This document shows, in pieces, positions 9,376 to 22,224 of a stretch of DNA of 64,000 bases (within the stretch, counting starts at the first letter, position 1; the number at the start of each line of letters is the position of its first letter). A program made the position numbers and the translations under genes. Source of the stretch: an uncultured Clostridia bacterium. GTDB taxonomy: Bacteria > Bacillota > Clostridia > Oscillospirales > Ruminococcaceae. The stretch lies in NCBI GenBank assembly GCA_947627235.1, contig CANQVG010000009.1, positions 2,376 through 66,375 of the forward strand, given 5' to 3'. Below the pieces are notes generated by a model. The model was not told the DNA's origin, made no database searches, and saw only the letters and a program-made list of their open reading frames with translations.

Positions 9376-10758
9376 TTAGCAGATTCCGTTCTTTTTTTCA
9401 AGTGCTTTTGCGAGTCTTTTTGCAACCTTGTAAATATCCCCGCAGCCGAGAGTGATAACGAGGTCGCCGTCGCAGACGTGTCCCGCAAGGTAGTCTACGC
9501 ACTCGTCGAAGGTCGGGGTGAGGGTGCAGTTGGGGGTTATAGCGGCGAGGTCGCTTGAATGAATATTATAGATATTTTTCTCGCGCGAGCCCATAATCTC
9601 GGTCAGGACTGCCTCGTCGGCAATCGAAAGCGCCTTGGCGAAGTCGTCGAGCAGGCGGTAGGTGCGCGAATAGGTAAACGGCTGGTGTACCGCGATTATC
9701 CGTTTAAAGCCCAACTCCTTTGCGGCGGTGAGTGTGGCGTTAAGCTCTGCCGGGTGATGGGCGTAGTCGTCGGCTATCGTTACGCCGTTTATCTCGGCGA
9801 TTTTTTCAAACCGCCTTATGACGCCGTTGAAGTGCGAAATTCCCTCGGCGGCTTTCTCTGCTTTAACGCCGACGTATTCTGCGGCGGCTATCGCGGCTAC
9901 GGCGTTGAGTACGTTATGCCTCCCCGCGACGTGAATCTGAGTTTCGAGGAGCTTTTTGCCCCTGAAGTACACTTCAAACCGAGTGGAAAGTCCTTTGTGA
10001 TACAGAATCACGGGATAGTAGTCGTTAGAGCTTTCCCAACCGAAAGTTATGAGGTCCTTGCCCGAGATGCCCTCAAGCGCTTCGAGGGTGTTTTTGTCGC
10101 CGCCGTTGTAGATGACGCACTTCGAGGCGTTTTCCGCAAATTTCCGGAAGGATTTCTTCATATTTTCCATAGTCTTGAAGTAGTCGAGGTGGTCGGCGTC
10201 GATATTGAGTATAACAGCGATGTCGGGGCTGAGCTTTAAAAACGTGTCGACAAATTCGCAGGATTCGCACACCATAATGTCCGAGCTGCCGACGCGTCCC
10301 GAACCGCCTATAAGCGGAAGCTTTCCGCCGATAAAGCAGCCGATGTCCTCGCCCGCCTCGCAGAGAATCTGGGCGGTCATAGCTGTGGTAGTGGTTTTTC
10401 CGTGGGTGCCGGCTACGCATATAGCGTTATCGTACCATGTCGTGACAAGTCCCAGAAGCTCCTTGCGTTCGAGAACCTCCGCGCCCGACGCCCTTGCCGC
10501 AATAAGCTCGGGGTTATCGGCCATTATCGCGGCGGTGTAGACAATGAGGTCGGCGTCGCCGATGTTTTCCGCGCGCTGACCGATATATACCGGTATTCCC
10601 ATATCGCGGACAGCCTGAAGGGTTTCGGTTTCGTTGTTGTCCGAGCCGGTCAGGTAAAATCCCTTTTGGTGGAGAATCTGCGCGAGCGGATACATTCCGC
10701 TTCCGCCGATGCCGATAAAGTGTATATGTTTTTTGCCGCTGAGAATATCCTTATTCAT
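9376..10758 (-). CDS. murC: UDP-N-acetylmuramate--L-alanine ligase
   Basis: The start is taken at MNKDILSGKKHIHFIGIGGSGM (ATG 10758), and the 39-aa upstream extension in the ORF track is discarded. Mur ligase motifs are present (GTHGKTTTT). Confidence 0.92.
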   Translation of the reverse strand: MNKDILSGKKHIHFIGIGGSGMYPLAQILHQKGFYLTGSDNNETETLQAVRDMGIPVYIGQRAENIGDADLIVYTAAIMADNPELIAARASGAEVLERKELLGLVTTWYDNAICVAGTHGKTTTTAMTAQILCEAGEDIGCFIGGKLPLIGGSGRVGSSDIMVCESCEFVDTFLKLSPDIAVILNIDADHLDYFKTMENMKKSFRKFAENASKCVIYNGGDKNTLEALEGISGKDLITFGWESSNDYYPVILYHKGLSTRFEVYFRGKKLLETQIHVAGRHNVLNAVAAIAAAEYVGVKAEKAAEGISHFNGVIRRFEKIAEINGVTIADDYAHHPAELNATLTAAKELGFKRIIAVHQPFTYSRTYRLLDDFAKALSIADEAVLTEIMGSREKNIYNIHSSDLAAITPNCTLTPTFDECVDYLAGHVCDGDLVITLGCGDIYKVAKRLAKALEKKNGIC

Positions 10759-11638: not shown

Positions 11639-11867
11639 TATTTATCCTTCCTGAAAGCCGTCTTTTACGCGAGGCTTTCTGATATGATATATTCATATTT
11701 ATTGTATCACAAATAACTCGTTTTTGCAAGTTTTATTTCAAATAAATCTTGGAAACGCCGAAATTCGTTGCACTTTTGCCGCAGCGGCTCATAATTCCGC
11801 CCGCGCCTCTGCTATAGCAGGGGCTTTTTCGGCTTTAGACAATTCGGAAAATTTTTGGGAAAAGCCC

Positions 11868-11897
11868 TTGACATTTTTCACCGGGGGGGGGTACAAT
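11868..11897 (+). promoter_or_regulatory. sigma-A promoter with a G9 homopolymer inside the spacer
   Basis: TTGACA 11868-11873, an 18-nt spacer containing nine consecutive G (11883-11891), then TACAAT 11892-11897. It lies 78 nt upstream of the surface-protein gene. Confidence 0.6.
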
Positions 11898-11974
11898 GAA
11901 AATGTAAAAAATATTTTGTCGTAATCGGAACAAATGCGTTTTGTTTTGCGACTTATATTACAGAGGTGTATTAA

Positions 11975-13021
11975 ATGAAAAAATTTCTTGTTTTGGCACT
12001 GTCTTTGGCTTTGACCCTTTCGGCTCTCTGCGTTCCCGTTTTCGCCGACGAAAACCCCGCAGACCCTTCGGACGGATATACCGAAATGGGAACGTTTTCA
12101 GTCCTTGCTTCTCAGTGCAACAGAGGTATGGTGTATACCGACGTCTATTTCGGCACCGCCGACCCGCCCGCTTGCGTTTGCGGAGATTTCAGAATATACG
12201 AAGGCGAGTGCGAAGTCGTAAGCGACGGCTCCCCCGAGGGCGAAGCCGCCCTCGAATACTATACCGAGACGGGGCTTATCCCCGCCGGGACCGCGGCGAC
12301 GATTTATTTCGCCGCCGGTGCTTCTCTGCCCGATGACCCTGACGACGAGATACCTGCCGCAACGGAGACTTATATATCCCTTTCCTCTGTCAAAAAAATA
12401 GCCCTCGGCGCTCCGACGGAGCTTACCGAGGAGGCCTGCGAGCTTATGTTCCGAGTGCTGAACGAGGCGCGCAACTTCGAGTGGGACGCGCTTATACAGT
12501 TCCGCTACAGCCTTGACGACGGAAAGCTCAGCTCCGAAATTTACACCCTCCAGCCCGAGGAGTATATGCCCTGCGTAGATAACCTGACGGTTCTTTCCTG
12601 CGAGCACCGCGATGACGGCTCCGTAAAAATAATACTTGAGGGGACTGACGAAAACGGCAGGTACTTTGGGCATATCGTCGAGCTTGCCGACGCGGGCAAT
12701 ATTGCAACTCCCGACGACGGCACACCCGATGGAAGAGCTAAAGGCGAGCTTTACCGCAACAGCTATTCCATCGAGCCGGGAACGGTCGTAAAGCTGGTGC
12801 TTTTCTATAAATCGTCGGCAAACGGCGTTCATATCGACGGCGACGAAGTTTACGGAATAATGTTCTATGGCGAGAGCGCGGATATCAGTGCCGAGGAAAT
12901 CAAAGCGGGGCTGGACCGCTTTAAGGTTGAAACCTCCGCGCCCGACACCGGCATCGCGCTCTGCATACTGCCTGCGGTTTTGTCGCTGGCAGCTATCGCA
13001 GTCACAAAAAAGAAAAAATAA
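11975..13021 (+). CDS. secreted surface protein with C-terminal APDTG + TM + KKKK sorting-like signal
   Basis: 348 aa with the signal peptide MKKFLVLALSLALTLSALCVPVFA. The C-terminus is SAPDTGIALCILPAVLSLAAIAVTKKKK. No family recognised. Confidence 0.6.
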   Translation: MKKFLVLALSLALTLSALCVPVFADENPADPSDGYTEMGTFSVLASQCNRGMVYTDVYFGTADPPACVCGDFRIYEGECEVVSDGSPEGEAALEYYTETGLIPAGTAATIYFAAGASLPDDPDDEIPAATETYISLSSVKKIALGAPTELTEEACELMFRVLNEARNFEWDALIQFRYSLDDGKLSSEIYTLQPEEYMPCVDNLTVLSCEHRDDGSVKIILEGTDENGRYFGHIVELADAGNIATPDDGTPDGRAKGELYRNSYSIEPGTVVKLVLFYKSSANGVHIDGDEVYGIMFYGESADISAEEIKAGLDRFKVETSAPDTGIALCILPAVLSLAAIAVTKKKK

Positions 13022-13098
13022 TTTTCATTTTCGCGGAACTTTTCGGCGTCTTTTGACGTCTATATAAGTGAAAGCCCCGCAAGAAGTGGTTTTTATAT

Positions 13099-13136
13099 AA
13101 AAATCCGCCCCGACCGAAATCGGGACGGATTTTTTC
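13099..13136. terminator. bidirectional terminator between convergent genes
   Basis: aaaaatccgccccga...tcgggacggattttt, flanked by A and T runs. Confidence 0.7.
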
Positions 13137-14106
13137 AGTTCTGATAATGTATCTGCTGTCCGGTGACGAGCGGGCAGCTCACAAGCTCGGAGCCGTCGAG
13201 GTTTACCTTGTGCATATCAACGGCGGTTATCTGGCTGTTTCCGTAGGTGGTGTAGTAGTAGACGCCTCTGTCGGTATTGCAGCAGCTCGAATAAATGGTG
13301 TATTCAAATGCGTGTCCGACGCGGCAGCAGCCCTTTTGCTGAGCAACCGAGCCCAGTATGTGGAAGAACTGGCTTATGCTCTCGCTCTCCGACTCGCCGC
13401 AGACGGAATTGAGCTTTGTAAACGCCGCCTTGACGAATCTCGAAGCGCTTGAAAGGTCGCCCGGGATACCTATGCCGCCCATTCCGCGGCTGAAAGGCGT
13501 GAGCTCATACCCTTCCGCAAAGCGGCTGACCGCCTCCTCGCGGGTGCAGTTGAGGTAATTCGCGAGGTTGAGCATATGATAATCAAACGGCGGGTTGTTG
13601 GTGAGTACCCCGACGGGGTTCTCCCAAATTTTCAGCCCCTCTTTGACCGATTCCACAACCAGCGACTCGTTTTTGTCGGAGATTATCCAGTGAAGCGGCG
13701 ACGCCGGAAGCTCGGCGCTGAAATCTATCTTTGCTATGTTGATTTTCGCGAGCAGCTTTCTTGCGTCCGAAATGTCCGCGCACTGCGAAAGCACCCACGG
13801 TATAAACTCAAACGGCGCTATGTTGTCCTTGCCGGAGACTTCGGGCTTGTAGTCGGCAAATGTCGGGAAATTCAGTCCCGCCATCGAAAGCCCTTTTTCG
13901 TTGGTGCAGTCGTAATACAGCGGGTAGCCGCCCGCGACGTAAGCCATACCGATGAGCGCGTAGTGCGACTTCATCCCGCCCGCCTTGCGGAAATTAAAGG
14001 GGAAATTGCGCGGGGTGACGGTCACGGTCTCGTTGTAGGAAAATTCAAGGTCCAAGTTTCTGCCAAAGTAGTGGTCCTGAGTTTTAAAGGATATTGCCGT
14101 ACACAT
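13135..14106 (-). CDS. choloylglycine hydrolase family protein (bile salt hydrolase / penicillin V acylase type Ntn hydrolase)
   Basis: 323 aa with the N-terminus MCTAISFKTQDHYFGRNLD, giving a nucleophilic Cys2 after Met removal. Confidence 0.8.
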   Translation of the reverse strand: MCTAISFKTQDHYFGRNLDLEFSYNETVTVTPRNFPFNFRKAGGMKSHYALIGMAYVAGGYPLYYDCTNEKGLSMAGLNFPTFADYKPEVSGKDNIAPFEFIPWVLSQCADISDARKLLAKINIAKIDFSAELPASPLHWIISDKNESLVVESVKEGLKIWENPVGVLTNNPPFDYHMLNLANYLNCTREEAVSRFAEGYELTPFSRGMGGIGIPGDLSSASRFVKAAFTKLNSVCGESESESISQFFHILGSVAQQKGCCRVGHAFEYTIYSSCCNTDRGVYYYTTYGNSQITAVDMHKVNLDGSELVSCPLVTGQQIHYQN

Positions 14107-18777: not shown

Positions 18778-20337
18778 ATGACCTTATTGGACATCATACT
18801 GCTTTTGGTCGCTGTTGCGGCGGCTGTTGTATCAGGAATAGTATTCTATAAGCTCGGATATAACGATAGAAAGAAAAAAGCAGAGGCTCAGATCGGCTCG
18901 GCGGAGCAGGAAGCTTCGAGGATAGTCGAAGAGGCGAAAAAGAACGCCGATTCGCTTAAAAAAGAAAAGTTGATCGAAACCAAGGACGAAATTTACAAGG
19001 CCCGTCAGGAGGCCGAACGCGAAATCAAGGAGCGCCGCTCCGAGGTTACACGTCAGGAAAGAAGAATTCAGCAGAAAGAGGAAACTCTTGACAAGAAGCT
19101 TGATAATGTGGAGCGCAAAAACGATCTCGTCGCGCAGAAGCTTGCTCAGGCGGACGCAAAACTCAGCGAAGCGGAAGAGGTACGCCGCGGACAGATAGAA
19201 ATGCTCGAAAGGATATCTCAGTTCACCGTGGAACAGGCAAAGGAATACCTTTTAAAGCAGCTTGAAGACGAGCTTGTTCACGAAAAAGCCGTCAAGATTC
19301 TCAATTATGAACAGCAGACTAAGGAGGAATGCGAAGCCAAGGCAAGGCAGCTTATCTCTTTGGCAATCGCAAGATGCGCCGCCGATCAGGTCTCCGAATC
19401 TGCGGTAAGCGTGGTCCCGCTGCCGAACGACGAGATGAAGGGAAGAATCATCGGACGCGAGGGAAGAAATATCCGCGCGATAGAGCAGCTCACCGGCGTC
19501 GACCTCATCATCGACGATACGCCCGAAACCATCACCCTCTCCTGCTTCGACCCCGTAAGACGCGAGGTCGCAAGAATCGCTCTCGAAAAGCTGATTCAGG
19601 ACGGCAGAATCCACCCGACGAGAATTGAGGAGATGGTGGACAAGGCAAGACGCGAAGTCGAACAGGTGATAAAGAGCGAGGGCGAACGCGCTATCCTCGA
19701 AGCTAACATCCACGGTCTCAACCACGAGCTTGTCAAGCTCATAGGACGCCTCCATTACCGCACAAGCTACCGTCAAAACGTTTTGAACCACTCGATTGAG
19801 GTCGCTCACCTCGCGGGAATGATGGCTTCGGAACTCGGCGTAGACCCGACGCTCGCCCGCAGAGCAGGTCTTTTGCACGATATCGGCAAGGCGCTTTCAC
19901 ACGAAATCGAGGGCTCGCATGTCCAGATAGGCGTGGACGTCTGCAAAAAATATAAGGAGTCGCCGGACATCATACACGCCATTGAAGCTCACCACGGCGA
20001 CGTCGAGTGCCACAGTGTGATAGCTGCTCTCGTTCAGGCGGCGGACGCTATCTCGGCGGCAAGACCCGCGGCGAGAAGCGAAAACTTTGAAAATTACATC
20101 AAACGCCTCGAAAAGCTTGAGGAAATCTGCTCGGGCTTCGAGGGAGTAGAAAAATCCTTCGCGATTCAGGCGGGCAGAGAAGTCAGAATAATCATAATGC
20201 CCGAAAAGGTAAGCGACGAGCAAATGGTTATCGTCGCAAGAGAAATCTCGAAAAAAATCGAGGACGAGATGGATTATCCCGGCCAGATAAAAATAAATCT
20301 TATAAGAGAAACAAGAGCTGTAGACTATGCAAAATAG
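18778..20337 (+). CDS. rny: ribonuclease Y
   Basis: N-terminal TM, a long coiled-coil, a KH domain ([15 protein letters not shown]) and an HD domain (LLHDIGK). The start is taken at the ATG at 18778, 7 nt after GGAG. Confidence 0.93.
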
Positions 20338-20522
20338 TTAAAATTCAACAACAATCGGCGGCTAAAAGAGGCTGCCGATTGTGCATTTCTTACAAAATAA
20401 GAAAATATAAATATTTTTTGCAACAATTTGAGCCGAGTCTGACACTATTTAGACAGCGGGAAGCAAAGATGAGCTTAACCGCGGCGGAATTTTCAGCTTT
20501 TGCCAAAAAAACAGGAAAAGGG

Positions 20523-20551
20523 TTGACAAATCCGCCGGACTGTGTTATACT
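20523..20551 (+). promoter_or_regulatory. strong sigma-A promoter of the 512-aa surface-protein gene
   Basis: TTGACA 20523-20528, a 17-nt spacer, then TATACT 20546-20551. Confidence 0.65.
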
Positions 20552-20639
20552 GCTTGTGTCTTGGATTCCCGAGACAAATCAAAATTCCTATACCCGTATA
20601 GGAAAAACCTATCCAAATTTTATAAGGAGGAAAATTACT

Positions 20640-22178
20640 ATGGCAAAGAAAATTTTGGCAGTCGTTCTGGCTGTCATGATGGCTCTCTCTGCAATGGCCA
20701 TCACTGCGTTCGCCGATGATATTATCATCGATCTTTATAATGCTAACCAGAACCTCAACAAAGCCAACAACACCGTTACCGTAACCTTTGACATTCCTGT
20801 TTATGGTCTTTACGGCTATCTCACTGCGGGTGACTACTTCACCCTCGAACTGCCGAGATACTTCGGCGGCGAAGTTCCGGCAGATAAGACCATCAAATGG
20901 TCTGTTGTTGTTGACTCCACTTCTTGGACTCTCAAGAGCGACACGACCACCAGCTCTGTCGCTGTTTCCGATCCCAAGCAGGTTGTTATTTCTTACTGGG
21001 GCCACAACTATGACGGCACCAACACCGCTGTTCCTCAGGCCACCGGTTACAACCAGACCTCTTCTATCAGAGTAGTTGCTACCATTGAGAACGTCCCGCT
21101 CGTTGGCGGTTGGAAGACTCCTTCCGTTGACGCCACCTCGCTGTTCGTTACTCGCGGCTGGACCGGCCCTGAGTACGGCGATCAGCCTTCTCCGGTAAAG
21201 GCTCAGTGGTACACCAACAACGAAGCCATTAACGGCAACGTCAGCTATGTTATGCAGTGGAGTCCTGCCGCTTCCACCAATGACACCACTAAGGCGGGCG
21301 AATACAACTTCGTAAGCGCTGAGTGGACCAGCAGCCTTCAGGGCACCATTCCCGGTACTGAAGATACGGCTCCTTGGACCGGCAATGGCAGTGCAGCAGG
21401 CGATGCCGCTTACCCGCTCACTTGGGACCACACCATGAAAAACAGAGGCGATATCTACAGCTACGCCGGCACTACCGTTGAGCTCGTAGTTGAGCTTAAA
21501 AAGCCTATCATAGGCCAGGCAACTTACACCCTCTATGCCAAGGGCGGAGATACCCCCTACACCTACAACCAGTCTTACTGGTGGCAGTATAGCAACCAGA
21601 GAAAGTATATCACTCAGCAGACTGTTGTCGGCAAGGCAAACGAACTGGTCTTCGAAGTTCCGATCGAGGTTCTTCTTGACGGCACTTACGGTGCTTTCAA
21701 TACCGAGTTCGCTATCTGCGAGAACATCACCCTCCTCAACGCCAACACTATGAAGGACTACCTCAATGTTGACCGTGCCAAGGTTGGCAACGGCGACGGC
21801 AAATACGGTCCTATTTCTTGGAGAGGTTGGACCGATCGTATCCAGTACAACAACGAAGATGTCAACTATGCTAAGACCGGTGTTGCCGGAACTCTCGGCG
21901 CCGATGTAACCGCTACGAAGATCTATCTCCGTCTTCCCGAAATCGATACCGGCGACAGCAACGTTGATATCGACAATCCTCAGCAGGATACCGGCAACGT
22001 TACCGACGATCCCGCCGACGGCGATGAGATGAACGCCGGCGATCAGACCGAAGATCCCAAGGAAGAAGACAACACTCCCGCTCCCTCGGAGTCGGAGAAC
22101 CCTCCTACGGGCATCGCTCTTGCGGTCATCCCGATGATTCTTGCCGCTGCTGCTGCAGTTGTTGCTAAGAAGCACTAA
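20640..22178 (+). CDS. orphan major-surface-protein candidate with C-terminal NPPTG + TM + KKH sorting-like signal
   Basis: The start is taken at MAKKILAVVLAVMMALSAMAITAFA (ATG 20640, AAGGAGG RBS). It has a T/N/Y/W/G-rich beta-type sequence and an acidic linker. The C-terminus is ENPPTGIALAVIPMILAAAAAVVAKKH. No family recognised. Confidence 0.6.
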   Translation: MAKKILAVVLAVMMALSAMAITAFADDIIIDLYNANQNLNKANNTVTVTFDIPVYGLYGYLTAGDYFTLELPRYFGGEVPADKTIKWSVVVDSTSWTLKSDTTTSSVAVSDPKQVVISYWGHNYDGTNTAVPQATGYNQTSSIRVVATIENVPLVGGWKTPSVDATSLFVTRGWTGPEYGDQPSPVKAQWYTNNEAINGNVSYVMQWSPAASTNDTTKAGEYNFVSAEWTSSLQGTIPGTEDTAPWTGNGSAAGDAAYPLTWDHTMKNRGDIYSYAGTTVELVVELKKPIIGQATYTLYAKGGDTPYTYNQSYWWQYSNQRKYITQQTVVGKANELVFEVPIEVLLDGTYGAFNTEFAICENITLLNANTMKDYLNVDRAKVGNGDGKYGPISWRGWTDRIQYNNEDVNYAKTGVAGTLGADVTATKIYLRLPEIDTGDSNVDIDNPQQDTGNVTDDPADGDEMNAGDQTEDPKEEDNTPAPSESENPPTGIALAVIPMILAAAAAVVAKKH

Positions 22179-22224
22179 TTCCTCCTATTAAAGAAGGATA
22201 AACCGTTACTAAACGGGTAAACAG

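Follow-up and report, generated by a model that had tools for sequence, protein, structure and literature searches.

The 64,000-nucleotide stretch of DNA analysed here (the window) corresponds to C9:2376–66375 in a 1.65-Mb genome of 37 contigs and 51% G+C (label G000). It contains an open reading frame (ORF) for a 348-residue secreted protein, preceded by a promoter whose −35/−10 arrangement reads cccTTGACAtttttcaccGGGGGGGGGTACAATg and followed by a probable two-way terminator and a convergent gene of the choloylglycine hydrolase (CBAH) family (Table 1). The positions of the two hexamers, TTGACA and TACAAT, bear out the original prediction that they are 18 nt apart, and the nine consecutive G residues that it placed within the spacer are present; as it also held, the window has no comparable homopolymer, all others being at most 7 nt long. 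In a consensus scan the promoter scored 11 of 12, the top value between positions 10500 and 13500, and it is the sole strong promoter candidate in the sequence upstream of the ORF, which has a GAGG 8 nt before its ATG at 11975. The hairpin immediately upstream may insulate the promoter against upstream transcription. The predicted promoter thus laid out has the exact architecture of a promoter-spacer homopolymer switch.

Table 1 Features of the G9 promoter locus and the three G-run promoters of the genome (positions without a contig label are those of the window)
Feature	Position	Strand	Basis or remark
Terminator-like GC-rich hairpin and T run, directly upstream of the promoter	11805–11834	+	8-pair stem with 6 GC pairs, then TTTTTCGGCT
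−35 hexamer TTGACA (consensus)	11868–11873	+	Sequence; CCC before the hexamer kept in 9/9 orthologous promoters
Non-repetitive spacer half TTTTTCACC, 9 nt	11874–11882	+	Exactly 9 nt in 23/38 genus G-tract promoters
G9 homopolymer, flush with the −10 hexamer	11883–11891	+	Total spacer 18 nt; G8 would yield the preferred 17 nt
−10 hexamer TACAAT	11892–11897	+	Sequence and consensus scan
Initial transcribed region and leader	11898–11974	+	GAGG at 11963–11966; putative transcription start near 11904
ORF of the 348-residue secreted protein	11975–13021	+	N-terminal signal peptide; C-terminal APDTG, hydrophobic helix and KKKK
Conserved motif AAGAAGTGGTTTTTATATAAAAA, just before the terminator	13081–13103	+	Single copy in the genome; orthologous locus of nine species
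Hairpin and T run, probable two-way terminator	13109–13134		Shared with the convergent CBAH gene
CBAH (choloylglycine-hydrolase-family) gene, convergent	13135–14106	−	Neighbour of the 348-residue protein gene
G7 promoter TTGACA-N9-G7-TATAAT	C9:1615		Spacer 16 nt
Window promoter TTGACA-N9-G9-TACAAT	11868–11897		Spacer 18 nt
G9 promoter TTGACA-N9-G9-TATAAT	C16:9893		Spacer 18 nt

The 348-residue protein begins with MKKFLVLALSLALTLSALCVPVFA, a typical signal peptide, and ends with SAPDTGIALCILPAVLSLAAIAVTKKKK, in which SAPDTG is followed by a hydrophobic segment and KKKK. The sorting motif, APDTG rather than LPXTG, appears to be of the sortase type. Twelve ORFs of the genome carry xPxTG tails, this one included, two of the others also with APDTG, and four genes match the sortase domain PF04203. 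With a signal peptide, an APDTG sorting signal and genomic sortases, the label 'surface protein' that the product had been given is well founded. The protein is a near-orphan, with two homologue clusters (97% and 66% identity) among 5.8 billion proteins; a Pfam search matched no family, and a search of genome contigs returned no relatives. AlphaFold models of three sequences, at a pLDDT of 36, were unusable. The sorting signals of the 12 ORFs are unusual (NPPTG, APNTG, APDTG, SPETG, NPETG, NPKTG and one LPHTG) and are spread over contigs C1, C3, C4, C5, C6, C7, C9, C14 and C22. Several come after PAADET-type repeats, and one such ORF lies on the plus strand of the window near 20120–22180.

A single G9 run is by itself not improbable, as an independent-base model expects about 10 G/C runs of 9 nt or more in a 1.65-Mb genome. 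Genome-wide, the observed counts for run lengths 5 to 10 are 727, 48, 4, 2, 4 and 1, a strong depletion up to 7–8 nt followed by a bump at 9–10 nt, and A/T runs reach at most 8 nt. The steep avoidance and the subsequent bump suggest that long G runs are retained. The placement of the run in the window, flush with the −10 hexamer and 9 nt past a perfect −35 hexamer, is clearly non-random. Three of the 11 genomic runs of at least 7 nt share one design, TTGACA-N9-G(7 or 9)-TAnAAT (Table 1), and all three promoters would have a 17-nt spacer at G8. Four other long G runs, at C8:53000 (G10), C14:4660 (G8), C3:26906 (G9) and C34:13433 (G9), lie outside canonical promoters; two of them form GC-rich hairpins with C runs, a third is located 20 nt after a degenerate −35 hexamer and the fourth is 68 nt away from the end of its contig.

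Spacing in the ordinary promoters of the genome is strongly centred: among 162 TTGAC(A/T)-N-TAnAAT sites, the spacer is 17 nt in 114. Ordinary strong promoters bear the Firmicute T-R-T-G motif at −17 to −14. Apart from the G7, G9 and G9 promoters of Table 1, none of the strong promoters in the genome has a G run longer than 3 nt flush with the −10 hexamer, and G richness before the −10 hexamer was therefore rejected as a general promoter habit. The predominance of 17 nt, together with the lack of flush G runs elsewhere, indicates that spacing matters and that the G-run promoters form a distinct class.

This class extends across the genus. In a set of 41 species genomes, in which two sister species are rabbit-gut metagenome-assembled genomes (MAGs), the pattern TTGAC-N8-12-G7+-N0-5-TANAAT matched 38 promoters in 18 species, whereas the reversed control pattern and the C-run version each gave 0 matches across the genus. 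The run is flush with the −10 hexamer at 33 of the 38 sites. Its length is 7 nt at 9 sites, 8 at 4, 9 at 14, 10 at 10 and 11 at 1, and the spacers are dispersed over 15 nt (3 sites), 16 (7), 17 (4), 18 (11), 19 (11) and 20 (2). The 17-nt spacer, found in 4 of the 38 G-run promoters, accounts for 114 of the 159 ordinary promoters of this genome (Fisher p = 3e-12, a value overstated because the genus counts include sites from related, non-independent genomes). By one crude signal-peptide rule used for both groups, the downstream ORF is signal-peptide- or lipoprotein-like at 14 of 23 genus G-run sites, against 21 of 118 sites with ordinary promoters in this genome (p = 6e-5). A wider scan, with a single genome for each bacterial species, demanded G9 or more, so that its spacer distribution is biased and was left unused; it gave at least 120 loci, mostly in gut Clostridia and Bacilli. 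The matches listed also include Treponema, Streptococcus, Helicobacter, Moraxella and Streptobacillus, and among those listed 69 of 100 downstream ORFs are signal-peptide-like.

The promoter at C16:9893 precedes a lipoprotein gene within a tandem paralogue array. This array (G000:C16:7897–12241, outside the window; L186) comprises four tandem paralogues of a lipoprotein family of approximately 365–440 residues, which is present in 27 of the 41 species, often in arrays of 3–6 genes. Each array has one G-tract promoter, positioned before different paralogues in different species, an arrangement reminiscent of variable lipoprotein families. In three other species, G7–G8 promoters with 15–16-nt spacers (L024 in G001, L025 in G044 and L041 in G048) precede the gene of a very basic protein of about 80 residues containing RKRYYAKT, WTEEE and LEHSIPDSELS. 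Long G runs (9 nt or more) are unevenly distributed in the genus, with none in 11 species, 43 in G022, 32 in G006 and 24 in G051. In the last of these species, 17 of 20 inspected G9–G12 runs (L229–L248) are flanked by C before and TA after the run and have no canonical −35 hexamer; an upstream sequence resembling AAATTTCCGC is frequent, one run is G22, and several runs precede genes or fall within what appear to be polysaccharide-synthesis clusters (C20, C32 and C38).

The orthologous G9/G10 promoter is conserved in nine species, beside the 3′ end of a convergent gene that is mostly of the choloylglycine hydrolase family. The G run is uninterrupted in 9/9 orthologues, although almost no similarity is left in the other spacer half. 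G000, G024 and G053 have a G9 tract, and G005, G016 and G052 have G10; the tract of G054, G022 and G014 is G9, placed after a first spacer half of 10 nt, compared with 9 nt in G000. For the lipoprotein promoter, G005 has a G9 tract and its close relative G016 a G7 tract.

Within the species, 14 assemblies from 14 samples and several studies all carry the tract uninterrupted. It is G9 in 13 of them, among which are about eight strains that are only 98.7–99.3% identical to the window. The strain-to-strain difference in tract length that phase variation would produce appears once in this set, in a strain (99.1% identity) with G8 and hence a 17-nt spacer, on a contig at 2.5x coverage where a read error is possible. 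All six sequences of the sister species G024, the reference and five assemblies with coverage of up to 10x, have G9. G9 prevails in the species, and variants are rare at the consensus level. A scan of JGI metagenomes for the exact flanks with G6–G12 gave 0 matches, as did a scan of the same collection for the conserved 3′ motif.

These assemblies also bear on whether sequencing or assembly generated the run (through two-colour poly-G or a mis-join), or whether a run and a promoter-like sequence coincide by chance, possibilities to which we attach a very slight probability. Some long G runs in the genus lie at contig ends or are clustered and may be sequencing artefacts, and the low-coverage contig L016 breaks exactly at the tract. 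Against this, the sequence is found in 14 independent assemblies from several studies and has orthologues in eight other species, which effectively refutes an artefact, and chance would have to contend with the reversed and C-run controls, both of which are 0. Contig L016 (ENA ERZ27249685 NODE_20294; 3.4x coverage) comes from the same strain and is identical from window position 11894 onward. Its first 93 nt are an unrelated AT-rich sequence that replaces everything through the G run, TTGCCAATTTATCACC being joined directly to AATGAAAATG at a junction that faulty assembly probably created where coverage lapsed across the poly-G.

A protein gene lies behind the orthologous promoter in G000 only. 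It is absent in the eight other species, at L040 (G016:C5), L038 (G005:C6), L047 (G024:C7), L045 (G052:C13), L037 (G054:C4), L042 (G022:C60), L043 (G014:C13) and L034 (G053:C1). In G005 and G016 the leader, 84–87% identical, is joined to the last ~15 codons of the ORF, which reads as a clear deletion of the gene; in the six others the promoter is followed by 60–200 nt of poorly conserved DNA. All nine orthologous loci carry the conserved motif AAGAAGTGG-TTTTTATATAAAAA and then the two-way terminator, and in G014 and G053 this promoter–motif–terminator unit adjoins other convergent genes. The retention of the −35 hexamer, a pure G9–10 run and the −10 hexamer next to no surface gene argues for a function of the promoter itself. 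Since eight gene-less species keep it, it is under a selection that the surface protein does not explain, and its role is not simply that of a switch for this protein. The retained promoter may drive a short RNA or antisense read-through; the gene-less loci could represent a unit for a short RNA, or else a conserved 'expression site' in which genes come and go.

Taken furthest, these observations would make the conserved unit mainly a short non-coding transcription unit (promoter, 60–200 nt, motif and terminator) and the 348-residue protein gene a lineage-specific passenger, so that the target of the switch would be a small RNA, or read-through that runs antisense to the convergent choloylglycine-hydrolase-family gene. 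We regard this as improbable. It agrees with the sharing of promoter, motif and terminator by nine species when the ORF is confined to one, with the leader and C-terminal remnant in G005 and G016 and the absence of any remnant in the six others, with the different convergent genes in G014 and G053, and with the single copy of the motif in the genome. It is also in line with the position of the homologue with 66% identity, which sits elsewhere, behind an ordinary promoter that has no G run. However, an Rfam search of the locus and four orthologous loci returned nothing relevant, and the stretch from promoter to motif is so poorly conserved that it resembles decaying DNA. In addition, the motif AAGAAGTGTTTATATAAAAA recurs directly before a terminator hairpin after unrelated genes that have no G-tract promoter, at L270 (G024:C10), L272 and L273 (both G054) and L261 (G055). 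The motif with its hairpin may thus be a terminator type, a recurrence that weakens the motif as the mark of a small-RNA gene specific to the unit; it may instead be a conserved element located just upstream of terminators in the genus. A small peptide encoded at the conserved 3′ motif was rejected, because the reading frame differs between G000 and G016.

On balance, the reading that we favour, and consider somewhat better than even, is that the G9 run provides a sigma-A promoter with its mutable segment and acts as a slippage-prone 'dimmer' of the porA/TP0126 type. At 9 nt, the uninterrupted run is longer than the approximately 7 nt that a homopolymer needs for slippage. Because both hexamers are near-consensus, the strength of the promoter would depend mainly on their spacing. 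The current G9 tract, with its 18-nt spacer, would be a low or intermediate setting; slipped-strand mispairing with the loss of one G would give G8, a 17-nt spacer and a presumably high setting, and the gain of one G would give G10, a 19-nt spacer and a presumably off state. This ranking is drawn from the 17-nt preference of the ordinary strong promoters (114/159). Switching of this kind would be reversible and of high frequency within populations, although MutS and MutL are intact in the genome, so that slippage would be repaired and rates should be moderate. With G on the non-template strand and the run directly abutting the −10 hexamer, a change in length would displace the −35 hexamer alone and hold G at −14 and −16. 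As the run is always G and flush, these two positions would stay G at any length, in keeping with the extended −10 motif T-R-T-G. This maintenance of G at −14 and −16, which a C run would not provide, is the simplest explanation of the strict G polarity and of the flush position.

The 38:0 strand bias and the flush position show that the identity of the base matters as well as the length of the run, and they also fit a fixed, strand-specific promoter element, the length of which drifts between species with no useful switching within populations. Such an element could replace the extended −10 motif, or serve as a stiff GC-rich spacer that renders the promoter weak, supercoiling-sensitive or factor-dependent. 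We consider it a real but doubtful possibility. Besides the excess of 38 G-run over 0 C-run promoters and the flush position of 33 of the 38, it would account for the near-invariance of the consensus tract within two species, which counts directly against a dimmer, for the intact mismatch repair, and for the retention of the promoter where there is no surface gene to vary. The C-G(n)-TA flanks common to the 17 G051 runs, which have no canonical −35 hexamer, hint at recognition of the sequence itself. A fixed element should, however, prefer one length, whereas spacer lengths are spread over 15–20 nt with a deficit at 17 nt, the length that the polymerase otherwise prefers, and orthologous tracts of close species are one or two G apart. 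Helical geometry offers little help: on a rough estimate, an A-form helix is worth less than 0.5 bp, and it was rejected as the cause of the 18–19-nt spacers. Moreover, irrespective of purpose, the rate of slippage is raised in a G9 tract, and every slip alters the spacing.

A mutable, selected tract, as in the dimmer that we favour, predicts scattered spacer lengths, a shortage of 17-nt spacers, tracts that change from one species to the next and a bias towards secreted products. All four are difficult to square with a fixed element, which should favour a single length. The run-length spectrum, the retention in nine species and the 38 sites against 0 in the controls likewise point to long tracts being kept by selection. 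The proposal of phase variation made in the original prediction therefore stands in part. The spacer architecture, the surface product, the length differences between species, the 15–20-nt spacers and the enrichment for secreted genes speak for it; the scarcity of within-species variation (13/14 G9, and 6/6 in the sister species) and the promoter kept without a gene in eight species speak against it.

A broader proposal, speculative and in our estimate unlikely, is that strand-specific TTGACA-N9-G(n)-TAnAAT promoters constitute multi-locus stochastic switches in commensal gut Clostridia and, more broadly, gut Firmicutes, mostly resting at non-optimal spacings of 16, 18 or 19 nt. At the present locus, the switch would have outlived the surface gene in eight species by serving in addition as the promoter of a short regulatory RNA, or of antisense transcripts that enter the convergent bile-acid-hydrolase-family gene.

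Repeat-driven phase variation at multiple loci is documented almost only in pathogens, and a review asks whether this reflects biology or sampling bias (PMC11868660). A recurrent, strand-specific poly-G promoter design before wall-anchored proteins and lipoproteins of gut Clostridia would, if it operates as proposed, extend the phenomenon to commensals. Reference MAGs would then hide differences in surface-protein expression at the population level, with a bearing on IgA and phage pressure. The gain from the single locus is modest, as the mechanism is known and variation at the G9 site is barely seen. What the G9 case adds is a strand polarity of 38:0, the rarity of 17-nt spacers and the near-fixed G9 within the species, and, less expectedly, the persistence of the promoter in relatives in which the gene is lost.

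Several known systems share parts of this arrangement. In Neisseria meningitidis, a poly-G tract in the promoter spacer of porA, which encodes an outer-surface antigen, sets expression stepwise, as a dimmer rather than an on/off switch, and opc and fetA of Neisseria have poly-C in the promoter spacer. The G9 promoter resembles that of porA in having its homopolymer between the −35 and −10 hexamers of a surface-antigen gene. It differs from the Neisseria promoters, in which G and C runs both occur and lengths vary freely between strains, in that the runs here are G only (38:0) and the tract is nearly fixed at G9. The vlp system of Mycoplasma hyorhinis consists of tandem variable-lipoprotein genes with poly-A in each promoter spacer, and, like these, the G9 promoter on C16 drives one member of a tandem lipoprotein array. 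The tract there is poly-A, with one switch per gene in a wall-less pathogen, whereas here it is poly-G, with one per array.

There is also a likeness with Treponema pallidum, in which poly-G likewise occupies the −35/−10 spacer of sigma-70-type promoters of surface proteins, tp0126 and tpr; that of tp0126, an OmpW homologue, is optimal at 17 nt (PMC7864442, which summarises the promoter work of Giacani et al. 2007 and 2015). The tprL poly-G ranges from 7 to 11 within isolates, with a large majority of 9 (PMC7864442), and a tract that is mostly 9 G with minor variants of 7–11 makes a constant consensus, such as that found here, compatible with switching. In that spirochaete pathogen, heterogeneous tract lengths and their consequences for expression have been measured, whereas the present candidate switch belongs to a gut commensal of Gram-positive type with a product predicted to be anchored by sortase. 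The predicted G9 promoter has the sequence-level features of the porA/tp0126 switch class and is plausibly a candidate, rather than a demonstrated, member of it. Another parallel is Bifidobacterium breve, for which a G-tract ON/OFF switch that operates by replication slippage in sortase-dependent pilus clusters is described (PMC9187656). The two have in common a gut commensal, a Gram-positive envelope, a G tract and a sortase-dependent surface product; unlike the ON/OFF switch described there, the tract of the G9 promoter lies in the promoter spacer and should alter the level of transcription.
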